A stretch of 64,000 nt of DNA from an uncultured Clostridia bacterium (GTDB lineage: Bacteria; Bacillota; Clostridia; Christensenellales; UBA1242): NCBI GenBank assembly GCA_944372675.1, contig CALVZW010000001.1, forward strand, positions 137-64,136, given 5' to 3'. The position numbers were made by a program, and so were the translations under genes. The notes beneath the pieces are model-generated. The model was not told the DNA's origin and made no database searches. It was given only the letters and a program-made list of their open reading frames with translations. Below, in pieces: positions 12,296 to 52,084 of the stretch (position 1 is the stretch's first letter; each line of letters starts with the position of its first letter).

Positions 12296-12378
12296 TTTTA
12301 AAACCTCAATTTATTAAATATATTCTACATTTTTTTATAGTATTTGTCAATTAAATACTATAATTTTATAAAAAATTT

Positions 12379-12436
12379 ATAATACACCATATTTAGTGTA
12401 TTATAAACTCATAATACACAATATAAGGGGTAATAT
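12379..12436. repeat. palindrome doublet, locus A (two 26-bp units in 32-bp phase)
   Basis: ATAATACAC-CATATTTA-GTGTATTAT at 12379-12404, linker AAACTC, then ATAATACAC-AATATAAG-GGGTAATAT at 12411-12436. The second unit contains the SD (AAGGGG) and abuts the ATG at 12437. Confidence 0.9.
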
Positions 12437-13117
12437 ATGATTGATTACATACAAAGAACTGCAAGAAAAACACTTTCAATAATAATTAATGAAAAAGGTG
12501 AAGTAACTGTAAAAGCACCTAAAAGAATGTCAGAAAGTGATATCTATAAATTTGTACAATCAAAAGAAAAATGGATTAACTCAAAAGTTAATTCAATTAA
12601 ACAGCAAAATGAAATTAATAATGATTTATTTAATTATAAATGTATTTTGTTTTGTGGCAAAAAATATAGAGTTATAAAAGATACAAAGGCAAAAGATATT
12701 CAATTGGAAGAGGGTATAATAACCATAAAAAAACTTTCTTCATTAAAAAGGGAAGTGCGAGTTTTAGAAAAATTTTTGAAAAACAAATGTTTAGAAATAG
12801 TAGGGCAAAGACTTAAATATTTTTCAAATATAATGCAGTTAGAGCCACAAAAAGTAGTTTTAATGAATTCAAAAAGAAAGTGGGGCACTTGTGATAGTGA
12901 CCAAGTAATATCTTTTAATTGGCGAATAATTATGTTAACACCTAATTTAATTGATTATGTAATTGTACACGAGTTATCGCATTTAATTGAAATGAACCAT
13001 TCTCCAGCATTTTGGGCAATAGTCAGTGCGGTATTACCAAATGTAAAACAATTGAGAAGCACTTTAAAACAATGTAATTTTATTTTACAACAATTTAGAG
13101 AAATTCCTATTGATTAA
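12437..13117 (+). CDS. YgjP-like zinc metallohydrolase (DUF45/M48-like)
   Basis: 226 aa with the C-terminal motif VIVHELSHLIEMNHSPAFW (HExxH) typical of the YgjP family. Confidence 0.75.
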   Translation: MIDYIQRTARKTLSIIINEKGEVTVKAPKRMSESDIYKFVQSKEKWINSKVNSIKQQNEINNDLFNYKCILFCGKKYRVIKDTKAKDIQLEEGIITIKKLSSLKREVRVLEKFLKNKCLEIVGQRLKYFSNIMQLEPQKVVLMNSKRKWGTCDSDQVISFNWRIIMLTPNLIDYVIVHELSHLIEMNHSPAFWAIVSAVLPNVKQLRSTLKQCNFILQQFREIPID

Positions 13118-13150: not shown

Positions 13151-13184
13151 AGCAGAATATATTGTGGTATTCTGTTTTTTTTTA
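13151..13184 (+). terminator. intrinsic terminator of the ygjP-like gene
   Basis: Stem CAGAATA (13153-13159) pairs with TATTCTG (13168-13174), followed by T9 at 13175-13183. Confidence 0.75.
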
Positions 13185-13765
13185 CATGTAAAATTTATTA
13201 TGTGTTTAAAATTTGGTGTAGGGCGATATTGTTTTTAATATATACATATCTATTCGCTAAAGACAACTTTAGCGAATAGATATAGCAAAAATACCCTAAA
13301 AATAAGATTTTTTTCACAATATTTGTTAAATTTTATACATTATTTATTAAATTTTTTTTATTATATTTAAATAAAATTCTTTGTTTATTTTCAAATATTT
13401 TTGCATTTAATTTTGCATTGTAATCGATTTTTAAAAATTTTAATGAACTTTTATTCGTTTTTATTTTAAAATTTTGCTATAACATTTTTTATTTAATTTG
13501 TTTTATTTTTATAATACTATTAAAAAATATTTTCATAATACCATTTTCATATAATTAAATTTATTTGTAATATATAATACATTGATTATACATTTAAGTT
13601 TGTATAAAATTTATAAATATTTTTATAAATTGAAATTTTGTATTTGTAATTATTATAAGTTTAATTAACATAAATTTTTTTATGCTTGTTGAATTAGTTT
13701 TTTATATTATTATTAAAATTTAATATCAATAATTTAAATAATTAATTTAATATATTTGTATTTAA
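13185..13765. other. gene-free, extremely AT-rich intergenic desert
   Basis: No ORF of 60 aa or more in any frame between 13118 and 13800. This is the longest non-coding stretch in the window. Confidence 0.8.
13246..13283. repeat. perfect 38-bp palindrome (17-bp arms, 4-bp centre)
   Basis: ATATCTATTCGCTAAAG-ACAA-CTTTAGCGAATAGATAT with arms verified base by base. There is no adjacent U-run on either strand. Confidence 0.9.
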
Positions 13766-13794
13766 TTGATAAAAATTAAAAAATTTGATATAAT
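13766..13794 (+). promoter_or_regulatory. sigma-A type promoter with extended -10, positioned for a leaderless recombinase mRNA
   Basis: -35 TTGATA at 13766-13771, a 17-bp spacer, then TGATATAAT at 13786-13794. The ATG is at 13801 with no SD. Confidence 0.55.
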
Positions 13795-13800
13795 CAATGT

Positions 13801-14880
13801 ATGGATAATAATGAAACATACATTCAGCAAAGAGATGCAAAAAATATAATTAAATTAAGAAAATTAAGGGATGAATTACCTGTTTTTTGTTCAGAATTTT
13901 TTATAGGAATTGAAAATACAACAAGTGTTTTAACTAGAATTGCCTATGCACAAGATTTAAATGTATTTTTCAAGTTTTTAACACAAGAAATACCATATTT
14001 TGAGAACAAAGATATTCGCTTAATCGCCCTTTCCGACTTAAATCATGTAACTGCTGAAAATATAGAATTATTTTTAGACTATTTAAATTTATATTATAAC
14101 AATGGTAAAAAAGTTACAAATAATGATAAGGCAAAAGCAAGAAAACTTGCAACAATACGTAGTTTATTTAAGTATTTTTACAAAAAAAATAAAATTGAAC
14201 AAAATGTTGCGCAAAAAGTTGATATGCCTAAAATTTATAATAAGACTATTGTACGATTAGAGCCTAATGAAGTTGAAAATTTATTAAATATTGTGGATAA
14301 TGGTGATGTTTCATTAACTAGACAACAAAAAGATTTTCATAAGCACACCAGAACGCGCGATTTAGCAATTTTAATGTTATTTTTAGGTACTGGTATAAGA
14401 ATTAGCGAATTAGTTGGAATAAATATTAAAGATATTAATTTTGATGAAAATTCATTTGTTATAACTCGTAAAGGCGGTGACCAATATATACTTTATTTTT
14501 CAAATGAAGTTGCAAACGCCCTACTCCATTACAAAGTGCTTAGAGAACAAATAAAGACTAAAAATCCTCAAGATAATGATGCATTTTTTCTATCATTACA
14601 AAATAAAAGAATTACTACAAGAGCAGTACAAAATTTAGTCAAAAAATATAGTAAAATCGCATCTCCATTAAAGAAAATATCACCGCATAAATTAAGAAGT
14701 ACTTATGGAACAAATTTATATCAACAAACGCACGATATTTATATTGTTGCAGATGTTTTAGGACATAAAGATGTTAACACTACTAAAAAACATTATGCTG
14801 CCATTAGTGAAAATATAAGAAAAGATGCTTCAAAACATATTAAATTAAGAAATAATGATGAAGATAATTATGATGACTAA
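13801..14880 (+). CDS. site-specific tyrosine recombinase, Xer family (long, XerS-like architecture)
   Basis: 359 aa with catalytic pattern GIRISEL (Arg I), HKLRST (His/Arg II) and LGHKDVNTTKKHY (His, Tyr). The N-terminal SAM-like core-binding domain is longer than in typical XerC/D. Confidence 0.8.
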   Translation: MDNNETYIQQRDAKNIIKLRKLRDELPVFCSEFFIGIENTTSVLTRIAYAQDLNVFFKFLTQEIPYFENKDIRLIALSDLNHVTAENIELFLDYLNLYYNNGKKVTNNDKAKARKLATIRSLFKYFYKKNKIEQNVAQKVDMPKIYNKTIVRLEPNEVENLLNIVDNGDVSLTRQQKDFHKHTRTRDLAILMLFLGTGIRISELVGINIKDINFDENSFVITRKGGDQYILYFSNEVANALLHYKVLREQIKTKNPQDNDAFFLSLQNKRITTRAVQNLVKKYSKIASPLKKISPHKLRSTYGTNLYQQTHDIYIVADVLGHKDVNTTKKHYAAISENIRKDASKHIKLRNNDEDNYDD

Positions 14881-15076
14881 TTGTTTTACAGTTTTTAATT
14901 TAAATAATAATTAAAATTTAATTTTATAATCTATTAAATTTTATTTATTAAAAGTTTGTAAAATTTACAAATTTTATTATGTTTAATTATTATTTTTAAT
15001 TTTTAAACATTTTTTTGTGAATATAAAGGTATTTGATAACATATTTAAATAAACATATTTTTAATCAAAAAAACTT

Positions 15077-15097: not shown

Positions 15098-15126
15098 TTG
15101 ACAAAAAGTTTTTTATATGGTATACT
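15098..15126 (+). promoter_or_regulatory. lexA promoter
   Basis: -35 TTGACA at 15098-15103, a 17-bp spacer, then -10 TATACT at 15121-15126. Confidence 0.65.
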
Positions 15127-15154
15127 CAAGAAAAATACAAAGGAGAATATAATT

Positions 15155-15787
15155 ATGGCAAAAAATAATCAAAAAATTGACTATATGCTAGATTATATCG
15201 CATCTTACTCAAAAGATAATGGATTTCCCCCAAGCATACGAGAAATTCAAAATAAATTTAATTTTAAGTCGACTTCTACGGTGTCATATTATCTTAAGAA
15301 ATTAGAAGAAAGAGGCGATGTTGTTAGCAAAGGTAGAAAAAATAGAACATTAACAATTTCGCCAAGATATTATGATGAGCATCCGGAATTATCAAAAAAA
15401 TTCTTAGATAAAGATTTTAATTTAATTCCCCTACTCGGTTGTATAACTGCTGGTCAACCAATTTTAGCTGAAGAAAATTATGATGAATCATTTTTTATTC
15501 CAACTAACTTGTTTAGAGGTGATAACTTATTTATGCTTACAGTAAGTGGTGAAAGTATGATTGAAGCAGGTATTTATGATGGGGATAAGATTATCGTTCG
15601 TAAACAAGAAACAGCCGAAAATGGTGAAATTATTGTTGCTTTAATTGAAAATTCTGCTACAGTTAAAACTTATTATAAGGAAGAAAATAGAATTCGTTTG
15701 CAACCCGAAAACTCAACAATGCAACCGATGTACTTTGATAATATTAGTATTTTAGGTAAAGTTATTGGTTTAATTAGAAAAATGTAA
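15155..15787 (+). CDS. lexA: LexA repressor
   Basis: Start at MAKNNQ, with SD AAGGAGA upstream. The ORF-track start at 15098 lies in the promoter. It has an N-terminal wHTH and a C-terminal S24 peptidase with the GESM serine and the VKTY lysine. Confidence 0.92.
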   Translation: MAKNNQKIDYMLDYIASYSKDNGFPPSIREIQNKFNFKSTSTVSYYLKKLEERGDVVSKGRKNRTLTISPRYYDEHPELSKKFLDKDFNLIPLLGCITAGQPILAEENYDESFFIPTNLFRGDNLFMLTVSGESMIEAGIYDGDKIIVRKQETAENGEIIVALIENSATVKTYYKEENRIRLQPENSTMQPMYFDNISILGKVIGLIRKM

Positions 15788-15841
15788 TACACAAATTGTT
15801 GTGTATTATAAAAGTAGAATACACAATATAAAGTGTATTCT
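15784..15841. repeat. palindrome doublet, locus B (overlaps the lexA stop; the second unit doubles as a terminator)
   Basis: GTAATACAC-AAATTGTT-GTGTATTAT at 15784-15809, linker AAAAGT, then AGAATACAC-AATATAAA-GTGTATTCT at 15816-15841. The stem extends to 12 bp (15813-15844) and is followed by T8. Confidence 0.9.
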
Positions 15842-15990
15842 ACTTTTTTTTAAAAATTTTACAATTATAAATTTATAAAATTAAAGTAAATAAATACTGT
15901 ATTATATCTAATAATTTTATTTTAATTATCAATTATATTTAATTATATATTGATAAAAATTATTTGAATAATTATATTAAAATTATTTAA

Positions 15991-26506: not shown

Positions 26507-26590
26507 TTAGTTTCCCTCCTATAGTATTAAGACTCGCTGAATAAGGCGACTTGCGTACTTAAAAAGCCCACTCCAAGCGGTACTGCAGTA
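26507..26590 (-). promoter_or_regulatory. L21 (rplU) leader, ribosomal-protein autoregulatory 5' UTR
   Basis: This is the only GC-enriched, structured non-coding segment in the window. It sits between a consensus promoter and rplU, the position of the Firmicutes L21 leader. Confidence 0.55.
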
Positions 26591-26619
26591 AGTATATCTA
26601 AATTAACTCAATTTGTCAA
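26591..26619 (-). promoter_or_regulatory. rplU operon promoter
   Basis: On the minus strand: TTGACA (26619-26614), a 17-bp spacer, then TATACT (26596-26591). Confidence 0.7.
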
Positions 26620-28017: not shown

Positions 28018-29118
28018 ATGAAAATTTGCGGAATAATATGCGAACTTAATCCGGCACATAACGGACATAAGTTTTTAATTGAAGAAGTAAAACGGAAAAC
28101 TAATTGTGATTTAGTCATAGCAATTATGAGTGGAAATTTTGTTCAGCGTGGCGAACCTGCTATATTTGACTACCAAACTCGTGCACAAATGGCTATAAAT
28201 GTTGGTTTTGATGCTGTTATTTATTTGCCAACGGTTTACACTTTAAATTCGGCTGAAAATTTTGCTGGGCAGACTTTGTTTGTAGCAAGTCAATTTAATT
28301 TAGATTATTTAGCATTTGGAGTAAACTCTAATGAAGAAATTTTATATAAAATTAATGATTTAAAACAAAATGTTGATTTTAATAATTTAATTAAAAACAA
28401 TTTATCAAAAGGCTTTTCATTTTCAAATTCGTTTAGTAAAGCAGTTTATGAAAAATTGCATACAAATATAACTGCTAATGATATTTTAGCACTAGAATAT
28501 TTGTCAGTTATTGATGATAAAAAATATAATTTTACACCAATTATTATCAATAGAAATAATGAAATATCAGCAACAAAAATACGAAAGTTAATTTTGACAA
28601 AGCAATTTGACAAACTTTCTAATATGATTGATGAAAATAATTTAAATTTAATAAAAAAATCTAAAGTCAATAACTATAACAAATTTAATATGGTTATTTA
28701 TTCCAACATAATATCAAGTACGAAAGAAACCTTAGTAAATATAAAAGATATGCGTGAAGGAATTGAAAACAAAATATACAACGCAAATTCCAATACACTA
28801 TATGGTTTAAATAAGCAAGTAAAATCAAAAAGATACAATCAAAAATATTTAAATAGATTGTACTTAAATATATTATTTGGCATAACAAAAGATTCTAATG
28901 TTATGCTTCCCTATTTAAAAATTGTTGCAGTAAAAAATAAAACTGTTTTAAATAATTTAAAGTGTAAATTGCCTTTAATTACAACTTTAAAAAATAAAAA
29001 TATTTTAAATGAAAATAGCATTTATGATTACGATATCTTAAGTTCAAAAATTTATAATTCCGTTAATAAAATAAATTCCAATGCTTTCCCATATCAAAAA
29101 ATTATAATACACAATTAA
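28018..29118 (+). CDS. tmcAL: tRNA(Met) cytidine acetate ligase (YlbM/UPF0348 nucleotidyltransferase)
   Basis: The N-terminus GIICELNPAHNGHKFLI...MSGNFVQRGEPA matches the YlbM/TmcAL pattern. Confidence 0.8.
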   Translation: MKICGIICELNPAHNGHKFLIEEVKRKTNCDLVIAIMSGNFVQRGEPAIFDYQTRAQMAINVGFDAVIYLPTVYTLNSAENFAGQTLFVASQFNLDYLAFGVNSNEEILYKINDLKQNVDFNNLIKNNLSKGFSFSNSFSKAVYEKLHTNITANDILALEYLSVIDDKKYNFTPIIINRNNEISATKIRKLILTKQFDKLSNMIDENNLNLIKKSKVNNYNKFNMVIYSNIISSTKETLVNIKDMREGIENKIYNANSNTLYGLNKQVKSKRYNQKYLNRLYLNILFGITKDSNVMLPYLKIVAVKNKTVLNNLKCKLPLITTLKNKNILNENSIYDYDILSSKIYNSVNKINSNAFPYQKIIIHN

Positions 29119-29161
29119 TTGCGTATTATAAAAATATAATACACTACATTTAGTGTATTAT
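29104..29161. repeat. palindrome doublet, locus C (overlaps the last codons and stop of tmcAL)
   Basis: ATAATACAC-AATTAATT-GCGTATTAT at 29104-29129, linker AAAAAT, then ATAATACAC-TACATTTA-GTGTATTAT at 29136-29161, followed by a T-run. Confidence 0.9.
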
Positions 29162-29219
29162 ATTTTTTTTATAGATAAAATTCATTTTTATAATATAGAT
29201 AAATGCAAAGTATTAATAA

Positions 29220-39611: not shown

Positions 39612-39669
39612 ATAATACACTAAATATGGTGTATTATTATTTTATAATACACCATATTTGCTTATTATA
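39612..39669. repeat. palindrome doublet, locus E
   Basis: ATAATACAC-TAAATATG-GTGTATTAT at 39612-39637, linker TATTTT, then ATAATACAC-CATATTTG-CTTATTATA at 39644-39669. The right arm of the second unit is decayed, and its centre is almost the reverse complement of the first unit's centre. Confidence 0.88.
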
Positions 39670-39680
39670 CATTATAAATT

Positions 39681-40523
39681 TTATTCTTCTTTCAAACTTT
39701 CTTTAATTTTTTTCATTAAATCTATTGCTAATGGAAAACCGCCTTCAAAACTTTGAGCCAAGTAATTCATAGATTTTTCCAAATTAACTTCAACACCCTC
39801 GCCTTTTGCATAAGCAAGCGCTAAAAGGTATTGTGCTCTTAAATCGCCATTATCTGCAGAACTTGTCAATAAAGTAATTACTTCTTGCGAAAAAACATTG
39901 TTTTGAGATGTTGCGCATAGTTGTATTGCAACTTCATATTGAGCAAACGGAGACCCTAATTTTGCCGCTTTTTTAATTAAATCCCAACCTTTAGTAATAT
40001 CTCTTTGAACTATCACACCATTATCTGACATATAAAATGAACCGAGCATATAGACTGCATTAGGATAATCGCTTTGAGATAGTTTTTCAAATATTGCAAA
40101 TGCTTTTTTTTCATTTTGTTCAATGCCGAAACCAAACATATAGCAAAGTCCTATTCTAAACTGTGCCAATGTGTTGCCACTTGTGGCTGATTGTTGTAAA
40201 CAATCAAATGCTTCTGCTTGGGCGTTATTTTTAAATAGGTAAACAGAATATTCAATTAGCGATTCTGCTTGCCCTTTCTTTGCTAATTCTTGCCATATCT
40301 TATATGCTTTTTCTTCATCTTCAATAATTTTGTAACCAGCATATAAACAACACGCATATTTATATTTATCAAAATCGCTACATTCATTTAAATTTAATTT
40401 TGTAGGTTCAAACTTGTCATATTCATTTGTGTTCCCTAACAAATAATATGATTGGACTTCATTTAAAAAAATACTTTCACCAGTTTTTTTAATAGCCATT
40501 AAATCTTCTTTGCTTATTCTCAT
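39681..40523 (-). CDS. Sel1/TPR-like repeat protein
   Basis: Repeated A..y.LG.my..G.Gv..n..kA patterns. The ATG at 40523 follows an AGGAG SD. The ORF-track start at 40529 is a GTG inside the SD. Confidence 0.65.
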   Translation of the reverse strand: MRISKEDLMAIKKTGESIFLNEVQSYYLLGNTNEYDKFEPTKLNLNECSDFDKYKYACCLYAGYKIIEDEEKAYKIWQELAKKGQAESLIEYSVYLFKNNAQAEAFDCLQQSATSGNTLAQFRIGLCYMFGFGIEQNEKKAFAIFEKLSQSDYPNAVYMLGSFYMSDNGVIVQRDITKGWDLIKKAAKLGSPFAQYEVAIQLCATSQNNVFSQEVITLLTSSADNGDLRAQYLLALAYAKGEGVEVNLEKSMNYLAQSFEGGFPLAIDLMKKIKESLKEE

Positions 40524-49405: not shown

Positions 49406-52084
49406 TTAACCTTTGTCGCCATACAATCTTAAAAATTCTTCCATTGTAATAAAGATTTGTCTAGGCTTTGTGCCATCTGCTTTAGAAATGTATTGTCTTG
49501 CTTCTAATTCATCAACAATGCGTGCTGCTCTGTTATATCCAATGCTAAAGCGTCTTTGAATAGATGAAATTGAACAAATTTGAGTTTCAATAGCATTTCT
49601 AAGTACTGGTATAAAATATTCATCCTTAGTTGCATCAGCACCATCACCAAAACTTGCTTCAGTTGTTTTTTCAACCATAATGCTTTTTTCTATTTCTGGG
49701 TCATATTCGCAAGTGTTATGCTCTTTTATAAATTTAACAATTGATGACACTTCTTGTTGCGTAATAAATGCCCCTAGTAAACGCGTAGGCTCTTCACCGC
49801 GTGGGCAATATAGCATATCACCACGACCAAGCAATTTTTCTGCCCCGCTTTGTTCAATAATTGTTTTTGAGTCATTATAGTTTGTTAACGCAAAAGCAAT
49901 TCTTGATGGCAAATTCGCTTTGATTGTACCAGTAATAACATCTACCGATGGTCTTTGAGTTGCCAATATTAAGTGTATACCGCTTGATCTAGCCTTTTGA
50001 GTAAGTTTAAGTATTTTCTCTTCAATTTCTTTTCTAGTACTAATCATTAAATCGCCTAATTCATCTACCATAATGACTATCTTATACATTTTTTCCAATG
50101 TTCCATCTTTAACTTCGGGCATATCATTGTATTCATCAATACTTCGAACATAATATTGCGCAAAAACTCTATTTCTTCTTTCCATTTCCTCGCAAGCCCA
50201 TGCCAAAGCACTTACTGCTTGTGCTGGTTCAGCAACAACTTTTGGTAAAAGCAAATGCGGTAAATTTTCAAATATAACAAATTCTACATATTTAGGGTCA
50301 ATCAAAATTATTCTTAAATCTTGCGGTGAAGATTTATATAATAAAGAAATGATAACTGCATTCATAAAAACTGATTTACCACTACCTGTTGAACCCGCAA
50401 CTAGAGTGTGCACTAATTTACCTACATCGGACAAAACCGGTCTATTTGTTATGTCTTTACCAAGTGCAAAAGTTAGTGGCGAAGGTGCTTCTCTAAATTG
50501 TTTAGTGTCAATAATATCTCTTAAACCAATGGTATCAACTGTATCATTTGGCACTTCAATACCAAATGCGTTTTTCCCAGGAATCGGGGCTTCGATTCTT
50601 ATTGCTTTCCTACTTTCAAGCACCATAGATATGTCATTAGTGTATTGTAAAACTTTATTAACAGTTACACCTTGTGGCATTTCAAATTCGTATCTAGTAA
50701 TTGCTGGCCCTCTTGTTACGCCAACGCACTTAACAGATATTTTAAATTCTTCAAACTTCTCTTCAATGATTCTTGCCTTTTCTTCATACTTTTCTTGCGA
50801 CATTGAAGGTATGGAACTTTGTGTTGTAAGAAGTTCAAGTGGTGGTCGCACATACTTTGCTTTTCTTTTTGGTTTAGGTGCTTCTTGTTTAACTACTTCA
50901 GTTTTTTGCGTATCTTGTTCTTTATTAAATAAATTATTTAACAAATCATCAGTTGTACTGCTAGCATTATTTGTTTTGTTGTTGTCAAATATAATATTTT
51001 CAGTATTAAATTCTTGATTACTAAAATTGTTTTCTTGTTTACTTAAGCCTAATTTAGTAAATGCATCATCTTCTAAATTAACGTTACTTTCAAAATTTCC
51101 AATTTGTTTTTCATTAAAATCGTCGACAACCGGCGAAACTTTAAATTCGCTAGTATTTTTTTCTTGCAAAATTGTTTTTGGCTTATCAAACAAGTTAGTT
51201 TCATCGCTTTCGTTAAAAATAAATTTTTGAGGCTTTAATGGTGTAACTTGACTACCGTCAATAGCATCTTGCAAAGTTATTGAACCTTTACCATCAATAA
51301 TATTATCAGAACTTATTATACCCGAATAAATAGTTGGGTCAACTTTCGTTTGCTTTACTGGTTCTCGTTTTTTAATATTTATTGGTTTAGGTGTAATTGG
51401 TGTAACTAAATCGTTAATTTTATCTTTTTCATCTTTTTCAATTTTTGCATTTAAAGTTAAAGGCATTGAAATAAAGGTTGGCATACTTTTGTTTTTTTCC
51501 ATTGTTGCGTTTGGAACTTTCATTGTTTGAGTTTTGCTAGATACCTTATTTAATTTCACCTTTTCTGTTGTTGTTGAATTATTTGTGGCTTGTCTAGGTA
51601 TTAGCAAGTGTTTGTGATGAAATTGTTTATCAACACATACACAAAAAAATACAATCATTAAAATGACAAATAAACATATTACGGCTTCAGTAGGCAACAA
51701 CAATCTTAGCGGATAAATGACAAATGAAAAAATTGCTCCAGCAGGAGTAAGATTACTAAACGGATACTCCATACAATCGACAAATGATAAATTATATGAA
51801 CTGCTTGTCAATGCTATGTGTATAATAAACATCATTGAAAAAGCAATAATACATAATGACACAATAAAACTTGGCGTAAATATGTTTTTATATCCCATAA
51901 TTTTGGATACAGACAAAGCAATTAATAGTAAAAGCAAAATATAAATACTTGCACCACAAATGCCTATCAATAAGTGATTTAACAAATCTAAAATTGAAAA
52001 TGATATGCAAATTAGCACAAGTAAAGACACAAACAACACAATCAATGGTGTTGTGTTTTCTCTTGTCAATATTTTACGAATCAT
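49406..52084 (-). CDS. ftsK: DNA translocase FtsK/SpoIIIE
   Basis: N-terminal TMs, a long low-complexity linker, a motor domain with Walker A GSTGSGKSV and Walker B VIMVDELGDLM, and a C-terminal gamma wHTH. Confidence 0.93.
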   Translation of the reverse strand: MIRKILTRENTTPLIVLFVSLLVLICISFSILDLLNHLLIGICGASIYILLLLLIALSVSKIMGYKNIFTPSFIVSLCIIAFSMMFIIHIALTSSSYNLSFVDCMEYPFSNLTPAGAIFSFVIYPLRLLLPTEAVICLFVILMIVFFCVCVDKQFHHKHLLIPRQATNNSTTTEKVKLNKVSSKTQTMKVPNATMEKNKSMPTFISMPLTLNAKIEKDEKDKINDLVTPITPKPINIKKREPVKQTKVDPTIYSGIISSDNIIDGKGSITLQDAIDGSQVTPLKPQKFIFNESDETNLFDKPKTILQEKNTSEFKVSPVVDDFNEKQIGNFESNVNLEDDAFTKLGLSKQENNFSNQEFNTENIIFDNNKTNNASSTTDDLLNNLFNKEQDTQKTEVVKQEAPKPKRKAKYVRPPLELLTTQSSIPSMSQEKYEEKARIIEEKFEEFKISVKCVGVTRGPAITRYEFEMPQGVTVNKVLQYTNDISMVLESRKAIRIEAPIPGKNAFGIEVPNDTVDTIGLRDIIDTKQFREAPSPLTFALGKDITNRPVLSDVGKLVHTLVAGSTGSGKSVFMNAVIISLLYKSSPQDLRIILIDPKYVEFVIFENLPHLLLPKVVAEPAQAVSALAWACEEMERRNRVFAQYYVRSIDEYNDMPEVKDGTLEKMYKIVIMVDELGDLMISTRKEIEEKILKLTQKARSSGIHLILATQRPSVDVITGTIKANLPSRIAFALTNYNDSKTIIEQSGAEKLLGRGDMLYCPRGEEPTRLLGAFITQQEVSSIVKFIKEHNTCEYDPEIEKSIMVEKTTEASFGDGADATKDEYFIPVLRNAIETQICSISSIQRRFSIGYNRAARIVDELEARQYISKADGTKPRQIFITMEEFLRLYGDKG

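Follow-up and report, generated by a model that had tools for sequence, protein, structure and literature searches.

In a 64-kb stretch of a contig from an uncultured bacterium of the class Clostridia (the window hereafter, by which the whole stretch analyzed is meant), a perfect 38-bp inverted repeat lies upstream of a gene for a tyrosine recombinase of the Xer family. The palindrome reads ATATCTATTCGCTAAAG-ACAA-CTTTAGCGAATAGATAT, with 17-nt arms and a 4-nt spacer, and is located in a 683-bp gap between the gene of a YgjP-like metallopeptidase (12437–13117, + strand) and that of the recombinase (Table 1). The recombinase start codon is 518 bp from the end of the palindrome and 537 bp from the center of the site. 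The gene next after the recombinase is lexA (15098–15787, + strand). A preliminary description of this DNA had presented the palindrome as a perfect repeat with 17-bp arms, isolated in a gap of about 680 bp some 520 bp upstream of the recombinase gene and unrelated in sequence to the ATAATACAC family, and each of these statements is borne out. A first-order Markov model of the window, simulated 100 times, generated no perfect arm of 17 nt (longest arm 11.4 nt on average and 15 nt at most), so the palindrome is not a chance outcome of AT-rich DNA. The search for further copies that had been proposed was run within the 64-kb window: neither a copy nor a half-copy of the palindrome exists there at three mismatches or fewer, and the weight matrix of the site family described below detects no second full site. 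A lone half-site-like match, AACTATGCGCAACA (39888–39904, - strand, 16.2 bits), falls within a coding region and is probably due to chance.

Table 1. Positions in the window of the palindrome, its parts and the features discussed with it
Feature	Positions	Strand	Basis
Hairpin with T-run terminating the YgjP-like gene	~13151–13186	+	Sequence, folding
Full palindrome, 17-nt arms and 4-nt spacer	13246–13283		Simulations; 43-column block identical to L001
Left arm, putative recombinase-binding, ATCTATTCGCTAAA (family consensus WWCTATKCGYWAAA)	13248–13261	+	Weight matrix of 118 half-sites
6-bp central (crossover) region GACAAC, non-palindromic	13262–13267		Low information; crossover in L187 versus L212
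Right arm, putative recombinase-binding, TTTAGCGAATAGAT on the + strand	13268–13281	-	Weight matrix of 118 half-sites
Promoter-like TTGATA-17-TATAAT of the recombinase gene	13766–13794	+	11 of 12 consensus matches, TG before the -10
Xer-family tyrosine recombinase, 359 aa, presumed enzyme for the site	13801–14880	+	Pfam, NCBIfam, alignment
FtsK DNA translocase, alpha, motor and gamma domains	49406–52084	-	Pfam

The recombinase matches the Pfam family Phage_integrase (1.3e-31) together with a SAM-like N-terminal domain. Its best NCBIfam model is XerS (NF003462), aligned over positions 6–356 of 360 with 190 bits against a cut-off of 267, followed by XerA, XerC (161 bits, cut-off 335) and XerD (152 bits, cut-off 330); the protein fails the cut-offs of XerS, XerC and XerD, and by the NCBIfam threshold is not an XerS orthologue. 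The nearest solved structures are those of XerA, XerD and XerH, the match to the XerH chain 5jjv (E = 1.3e-12) being weaker than those to XerA and XerD. Residues R200, K224, H296, R299, H322 and Y332 are invariant across 26 aligned homologues. On these alignments the protein is a predicted catalytically competent member of the Xer group, outside all of its named families. Homologues at 55–86% identity are plentiful in metagenome-derived Clostridia. The -10 element of the putative promoter ends 6 nt ahead of the recombinase ATG and no ribosome-binding site is visible between them (window 13766–13803); the distances from -10 to ATG are likewise short in relatives, and the mRNA may be leaderless.

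Conservation of the site with the recombinase gene

A scan of species-representative genomes for the recombinase gene gave 80 loci, mostly in metagenome-assembled genomes of Christensenellales and other Clostridia, whose recombinases are 51–83% identical to that of the window. Absence of the palindrome from relatives that keep the recombinase had been named beforehand as a possible refutation of its role; the full site is present in 59 of these 80 loci, mostly 50–600 bp upstream of the gene, where two half-sites in inverted orientation again keep the same spacing. Alignment with L001, the closest relative (83% protein identity), shows the palindrome as a block of 43 identical columns in intergenic DNA that can otherwise barely be aligned. 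The 118 half-sites of the 59 loci define a 14-nt arm, WWCTATKCGYWAAA, with 0.9–1.9 bits per position, and a 6-nt center with 0.2–0.5 bits. This profile of information gives the site an anatomy of 14-6-14 (34 bp) and overturns the alternative 15-8-15 geometry that had been suggested. Left and right arms yield one shared 14-nt consensus, against which the left arm of the window scores 19.3 bits in the weight matrix of the family. The center is palindromic in none of 135 distinct related sites. It is an asymmetric center that gives the site of a tyrosine recombinase its direction.

Because this sample had been picked through the gene, we added a second one of 120 metagenome contigs (GC 28–60%) picked by the site pattern alone. 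A homologue of the recombinase at least 40% identical is encoded in 41–43 of the 120, depending on the length filter, and by the stricter of these counts in 24 of the 50 loci that have at least 1.5 kb on both sides of the site. In all 41 linked loci the site lies 5' of the recombinase gene, at a median distance of 135 bp, and the site thus accompanies the gene in genomes of 28–60% GC. In about 13 loci the full site is found 1–3.9 kb from the gene, and a separate half-site stays at the promoter. The intervening open reading frames, of ~430 and ~310 aa, resemble ordinary genes, for which reason we rejected the idea that the DNA between the distant site and the gene is an integrated element; the ~430-aa frame appears to be seryl-tRNA synthetase (serS), judged from its N-terminal sequence only.

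Some loci depart from the common arrangement. In L076 the unit of site plus recombinase gene is inverted relative to its conserved neighbors. In a subgroup of loci (L015, L031, L038, L042, L043, L056 and L058) the recombinase gene is followed by a PadR-like gene and preceded by half-sites only. The two arms stand ~75 bp apart in L031 and L038.

The arms are conserved as sequence rather than as partners in pairing. They are identical in only 24 of the 59 chromosomal sites (35 differ) and in 13 of 76 distinct sites from viral contigs (63 differ), and the perfect palindromy of the window site is a local peculiarity. At the variable positions -8 and -7 of the viral sites, identity between arms (0.41 and 0.38) is rarer than independence would give (0.51 and 0.50 expected). 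Moreover, solitary half-sites occur 15–130 bp upstream of the recombinase gene in 28 of the 80 loci, where they abut a TTGACA -35 element (AACTATTCGTAAAA-TTGACA) or follow it within the spacer (TTGACA-TTTTGCGAATAGTT); in 10 loci the exact place of the 6-nt center is taken by TTGACA. Examples of such promoter half-sites are L026 3938–3986, L055 3944–3992, L015 3911–3959 and L043 3902–3950. Differing arms and lone half-sites argue for a site read by a protein and not for a hairpin.

The preliminary description had likewise held that the palindrome is not a canonical terminator, with no U-run on either strand. The conclusion stands, and so does its premise for the + strand; on the minus strand there is a weak TATATATT tail, and it is solely on that strand that a terminator scan flags the palindrome, with no minus-strand gene reading into it. 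The marks of an intrinsic terminator are lacking: there is no T-run on the + strand, and in most relatives the arms are not complementary. The upstream gene has a terminator of its own (Table 1), so the palindrome is not needed for that role.

Insertion at the site and its terminus-like position

A relative provides a case of insertion exactly at the site. In L187 the order is host recombinase gene (49% identical to that of the window), PP-loop ATPase gene, a site in which only the left arm is perfect, an element of 5,266 bp and a full site. The element encodes a protein with Viral_Rep and helicase domains and a Zot-type assembly ATPase. L212 represents the empty allele, with a host flank 99% identical and without the 5,266 bp (compared stretches, L187 1860–7200 and L212 12850–12960); further empty sites are those of L202 and L313, and further occupied ones those of L193 and L301. 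The empty site reads AACTATTCGCAAAA-CCTAAG-TTTAACGAATAGTT. At the left junction AACTATTCGCAAAA and CCT are followed by element DNA (GTC and a degenerate arm), and at the right junction element DNA is followed by AACTATTCGCAAAA, CCT, AAG and the right arm of the host. The crossover therefore lies within AACTATTCGCAAAACCT, that is the left arm and the first 3 nt (CCT) of the center, which is kept at both junctions. The site of the element itself has one good arm, a degenerate second arm and a center of which only 3 nt match the host. Insertion of the element regenerates one intact site.

Filamentous phages that use the Xer recombinases of their host for integration have been described with such a layout (review, PMC5357621), and from it we infer that the L187 element would use the host recombinase. 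Exact insertion, a crossover in or next to the center and the regeneration of one site, the signs of a target for integrative mobile elements exploiting Xer (IMEX), are all seen in the relative, not in the window. Known IMEX include CTX-phi and VGJ-phi of Vibrio (Huber and Waldor 2002, as cited in PMC1914069; review, PMC5357621). The Rep and Zot element sits at its site just as they do, but here the hosts are Gram-positive anaerobes whose Xer system would work with a single recombinase. Two more Zot-encoding contigs carry the site (L093 and L182). To the left of the site in L265 (3562–4949) lies DNA that corresponds, in reverse complement, to the right flank at L187; to its right, the initial 45 nt agree with the same flank read forward. 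An inversion or another rearrangement may have ended at the site.

The surroundings of the site are those of a chromosome. The order xer-lexA-miaA-mutL-mutS recurs downstream in most loci, with variable genes upstream, and flanking phage genes were found neither in the window nor in the 80 host loci, apart from cellular FtsK. When the GC skew of each gene in the window is regressed on gene orientation and a breakpoint, the best sign change falls at ~12.4–23 kb, with a weighted error of 205–240 compared with 403 for the fit without a breakpoint. Left of the breakpoint the corrected skew averages about +0.07, past 22 kb about -0.08, and the position of the site is 13.26 kb. Among relatives, 48 of 55 loci have a higher corrected skew to the left of the site than to its right (median difference 0.072), and 82% of the coding bases are on the + strand left of the site compared with 42% on the right, a figure that includes xer and lexA, which are on the + strand by construction. 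Genes converge on the region of the site, and the direction of both trends agrees with that predicted for a replication terminus. FtsK, the usual partner that controls Xer recombination, is encoded in the same window (FtsK_SpoIIIE 3.8e-54, FtsK_alpha 1.8e-25, FtsK_gamma 4e-22). No canonical Firmicutes dif (ACTTCCTAGAATATATATTATGTAAACT, with up to three mismatches) is present in the window.

A candidate dif-type site and its rival explanations

These observations lead us to consider the palindrome as probably a dif-type chromosomal recombination site, on which the Xer-family recombinase encoded 0.5 kb downstream would act. The proposal of the preliminary description, a core site for the downstream tyrosine recombinase, gains support from the linkage to the gene, from the arm-center-arm architecture and from the exact insertion of an element in a relative. 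Comparison shows a conserved protein-recognition element that is linked to one gene family, is placed at a terminus-like switch of gene orientation and skew, and serves in a relative as a point of insertion in vivo. In the proposed mechanism two recombinase monomers would bind the 14-bp arms, and two such complexes, on the sister copies of the chromosome, would synapse. Strands would then be cut and exchanged at the borders of the 6-bp center, an exchange that would turn the chromosome dimer into monomers, probably under the control of the FtsK of the same window by analogy with XerS and XerCD. We infer that the recombinase is the binder, that one recombinase suffices, and that dimer resolution, dependence on FtsK and autoregulation belong to the system.

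Several points weigh against this assignment. The case of insertion was seen in a relative with a recombinase of only 49% identity; 21 of the 80 loci selected by their recombinase have no full site within 4 kb, some of them only half-sites; and the recombinase of the window scores below the curated cut-off of every named Xer family. The sequence available covers 64 kb of this genome, a limited basis for the number of copies of the site per genome and for the absence of XerC/XerD paralogues. The skew switch of the window is resolved to ~10 kb only, with just 13 kb of sequence left of the site, and the skew statistics of the related loci overstate significance, as these loci share ancestry and downstream synteny. 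Many tailed phages, too, carry the site, and no such recombinase is encoded near it there, so that it may have other protein binders. Binding, cleavage and dimer resolution are predictions from sequence comparison.

Alternatively, the palindrome could be a transcriptional operator only, bound by the recombinase-like protein or by a different regulator, for instance LexA, in control of xer and lexA, with no part in recombination. The half-sites at or inside the -35/-10 region of the recombinase gene in 28 of the 80 relatives would fit, as would a full site within 130 bp of the gene in 19 more and the position of lexA directly downstream. Half-sites of this kind suggest that in relatives the recombinase represses its own promoter, and autoregulation through the site was proposed, speculatively, for XerS by Le Bourgeois et al. 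(PMC1914069). We regard a purely regulatory role as improbable. The site of the window is 537 bp from the gene, whose promoter has no detectable half-site, and in the ~13 relatives with a distant full site, the putative serS and another gene stand between site and gene while the half-site remains at the promoter. The invariance of the catalytic residues and the element inserted exactly at the site in L187 speak against it as well, and regulation is compatible with recombination, so that this rival covers regulation alone. A LexA operator was set aside on further grounds. The LexA box of Firmicutes is GAAC-N4-GTTC, which the motif does not resemble; its arms are too long, its half-sites occur alone, and lexA has a palindrome of its own. 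The latter (AAAAGTTTGTAAAATTTACAAATTTT, 14950–14975, between the recombinase gene and lexA) shows no relation to the present site and may be the operator of LexA itself.

Could gene and site instead serve a mobile element or a defective prophage as its int/att module, or work as an inversion switch? Integration modules usually have a site beside the recombinase gene, phage contigs commonly carry the same site, and in L076 the unit of site and gene is inverted relative to its neighbors. The conserved housekeeping neighborhood (lexA, miaA, mutL, mutS) across recombinases of 51–83% identity speaks against it, as do the lack of flanking phage or plasmid genes in the window and in the 80 loci and the match of the position to the switch in skew and gene orientation. 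With one full site in 64 kb, moreover, there is no inverted or direct partner. We therefore hold this explanation to be quite improbable. That the palindrome acts as a nucleic-acid hairpin, be it a terminator, a transcript-stabilizing stem-loop or a cruciform, is exceedingly improbable, since in spite of the perfect 17-bp stem in the window, the folding energy of the 201-nt region (-49.4 kcal/mol, z-score -6.1) and the terminator-like call on the minus strand, it is the arm sequence that relatives conserve and not the pairing, isolated half-sites are conserved as well, and the differences between arms at positions -8 and -7 of the phage sites exceed chance. Each of the three rivals is in conflict with several observations.

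Related systems and occurrence in viruses

Circular chromosomes need a means of resolving dimers, for which the XerC/XerD pair is the textbook solution; to our knowledge, few alternatives with a single recombinase have been characterized, namely XerS, XerH and the archaeal XerA. The most economical reading of the locus would be a single-recombinase Xer/dif module that resembles XerS/difSL and XerH/difH, and yet is a new variant. With XerS/difSL of streptococci and lactococci (Le Bourgeois et al. 2007, PMC1914069; Nolivos et al. 2010, PMC2965235) it shares a single recombinase of ~355 aa encoded right beside its site as one module, with XerS as the best NCBIfam model in a near full-length alignment. 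The arm cores are similar (TTTCCGAAAA and TTTTCTTGAAA in difSL, as quoted in PMC5357621, and ATTCGCAAAA here). In common, too, are a site that here appears to lie near the terminus, an FtsK with a gamma domain and an autoregulation that was proposed there and is suggested here by the half-sites. Unlike XerS, the recombinase is no XerS equivalog, its 190 bits being well under the cut-off. The difSL site is 31 bp long and asymmetric, with unequal arms and a reportedly long center, whereas the site described here has 34 bp in a 14-6-14 arrangement, often with full symmetry. Its hosts belong to the Clostridia (Christensenellales and others) and not to the Streptococcaceae, and the site is sometimes kilobases away from the gene, with a separate half-site at the promoter.

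XerH/difH of Helicobacter and Campylobacter (Debowski et al. 2012, PMC3325230; Bebel et al. 2016, PMC5241119) is alike in its single Xer protein of ~360 aa, its strongly palindromic dif, the A/T tracts of the inner arms and the linkage of gene and site. It differs in that the protein similarity is weak (5jjv, as given above) and in phylum and site sequence. The XerCD/dif system of E. coli and its B. subtilis counterpart CodV/RipX has in common with the present one the function proposed here, in which dimers would be resolved at the terminus under the control of FtsK and integrating elements would make use of the system. It differs by two paralogous recombinases and by an 11-6-11 site with unlike arms; with the XerC and XerD scores given above and no Firmicutes dif in the window, the locus does not qualify as a classical XerCD/dif system.

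The preliminary description had likened the geometry to that of lox and FRT. One tyrosine recombinase, inverted arms and an asymmetric center are indeed features of Cre/loxP of phage P1 and of FLP/FRT, but there the geometry is 13-8-13 and the site is that of a phage or a plasmid, while the present one is 14-6-14, chromosomal and set among housekeeping genes, and neither Cre nor FLP is among the matches of the recombinase. The analogy holds only in its general part, one recombinase on inverted arms; the nearest analogues are XerS/difSL and XerH/difH.

The existence of further alternative Xer systems was explicitly predicted by Le Bourgeois et al. (PMC1914069). Neither the site nor the module is described in PMC3025954, PMC5357621, PMC1914069 or PMC8136486, the searchable literature on Xer, dif or XerS in Clostridia holds no account of this system, and a literature search with the arm sequence (CGAATAGTT or AACTATTCG) returned unrelated primers only. 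Another candidate single-recombinase system appears to be widespread in Clostridia of 28–60% GC, largely in uncultured gut lineages. Its class of mechanism is an expected one; what is new is its breadth in gut Clostridia, the promoter half-sites, the pair of empty and occupied alleles and the sites in tailed phages. The site would serve as a sequence marker of the replication terminus in metagenome-assembled genomes, recombinase and site form a candidate pair open to direct testing, and the site offers a way into how gut phages, tailed ones included, exploit host recombination.

In viruses, the site pattern occurs in at least 120 IMG/VR contigs (L081–L200, GC 28–64%), with a large terminase in at least 59 of the site-bearing viral loci, and the same kind of phage context is also seen in 11 of the 120 metagenome contigs picked by the site. 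The usual order is small terminase, site 5–170 bp past its stop codon, a gap of 0.5–0.9 kb poor in open reading frames, large terminase and portal (for example L124 6115–6144, L169 8131–8160, L117 8458–8487 and L096 783–812). When oriented by the terminase genes, the phage sites have a preferred polarity, AACTATTCGTAAAA-N6-TTTAGCGAATAGTT. No close homologue of the recombinase is encoded near the phage sites in the IMG/VR contigs. The small terminases near the site are GP3_package-like and form three mutually unrelated clusters; as all three flank the same site, the small terminase is unlikely to be its binder in phages. A location of the site near the ends of viral contigs, considered in view of truncated locus flanks, was dropped, because both flanks are often short even in contigs of 100 kb and the ends of the loci thus differ from those of the contigs. 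A query of GenBank phage records with the phage-type site returned uncultured fecal phages, weak microvirus matches and chance hits, and no cultured phage.

Integration by the host enzyme, dimer resolution and circularization of a terminally redundant genome are possibilities for the role of the site in phages. In the broadest formulation, a single-recombinase Xer/dif system would extend across the class Clostridia, its site would have been adopted by at least two and possibly three kinds of virus (filamentous-like, tailed and, from the weak matches, possibly microvirus), and the host Xer would circularize or integrate the tailed phages; we advance this proposal as a doubtful one. Should packaging begin close to the small-terminase gene, the terminal redundancy of the first headful would include the site. 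The host Xer could in that event circularize the injected genome, or integrate it with no phage integrase, much as Cre/loxP does in P1 but with a borrowed enzyme.

Two further features were noted in the phage loci. TTATGCA-like and ATACAATATATTGTAT-like motifs are repeated in the gap between small and large terminase genes. In ten viral contigs (L119, L106, L125, L130, L133, L154, L171, L179, L189 and L195) a gene for a short (~250 aa) FtsK/SpoIIIE-like ATPase is located ~1.7 kb from the site; its product may be a packaging ATPase or may be related to the control of Xer.

Elsewhere in the window, an Rfam scan of its whole length gave no match at the palindrome and a sole hit, an L21 ribosomal-protein leader (26520–26594, - strand), whose 36.4 bits are at the gathering threshold and which fits a Firmicutes origin. 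Inverted repeats of the form TATAATACAC...GTGTATTATA, the ATAATACAC family of the preliminary description, recur at gene boundaries, at 12378–12437, 15778–15847, 29092–29173 and 39622–39659.

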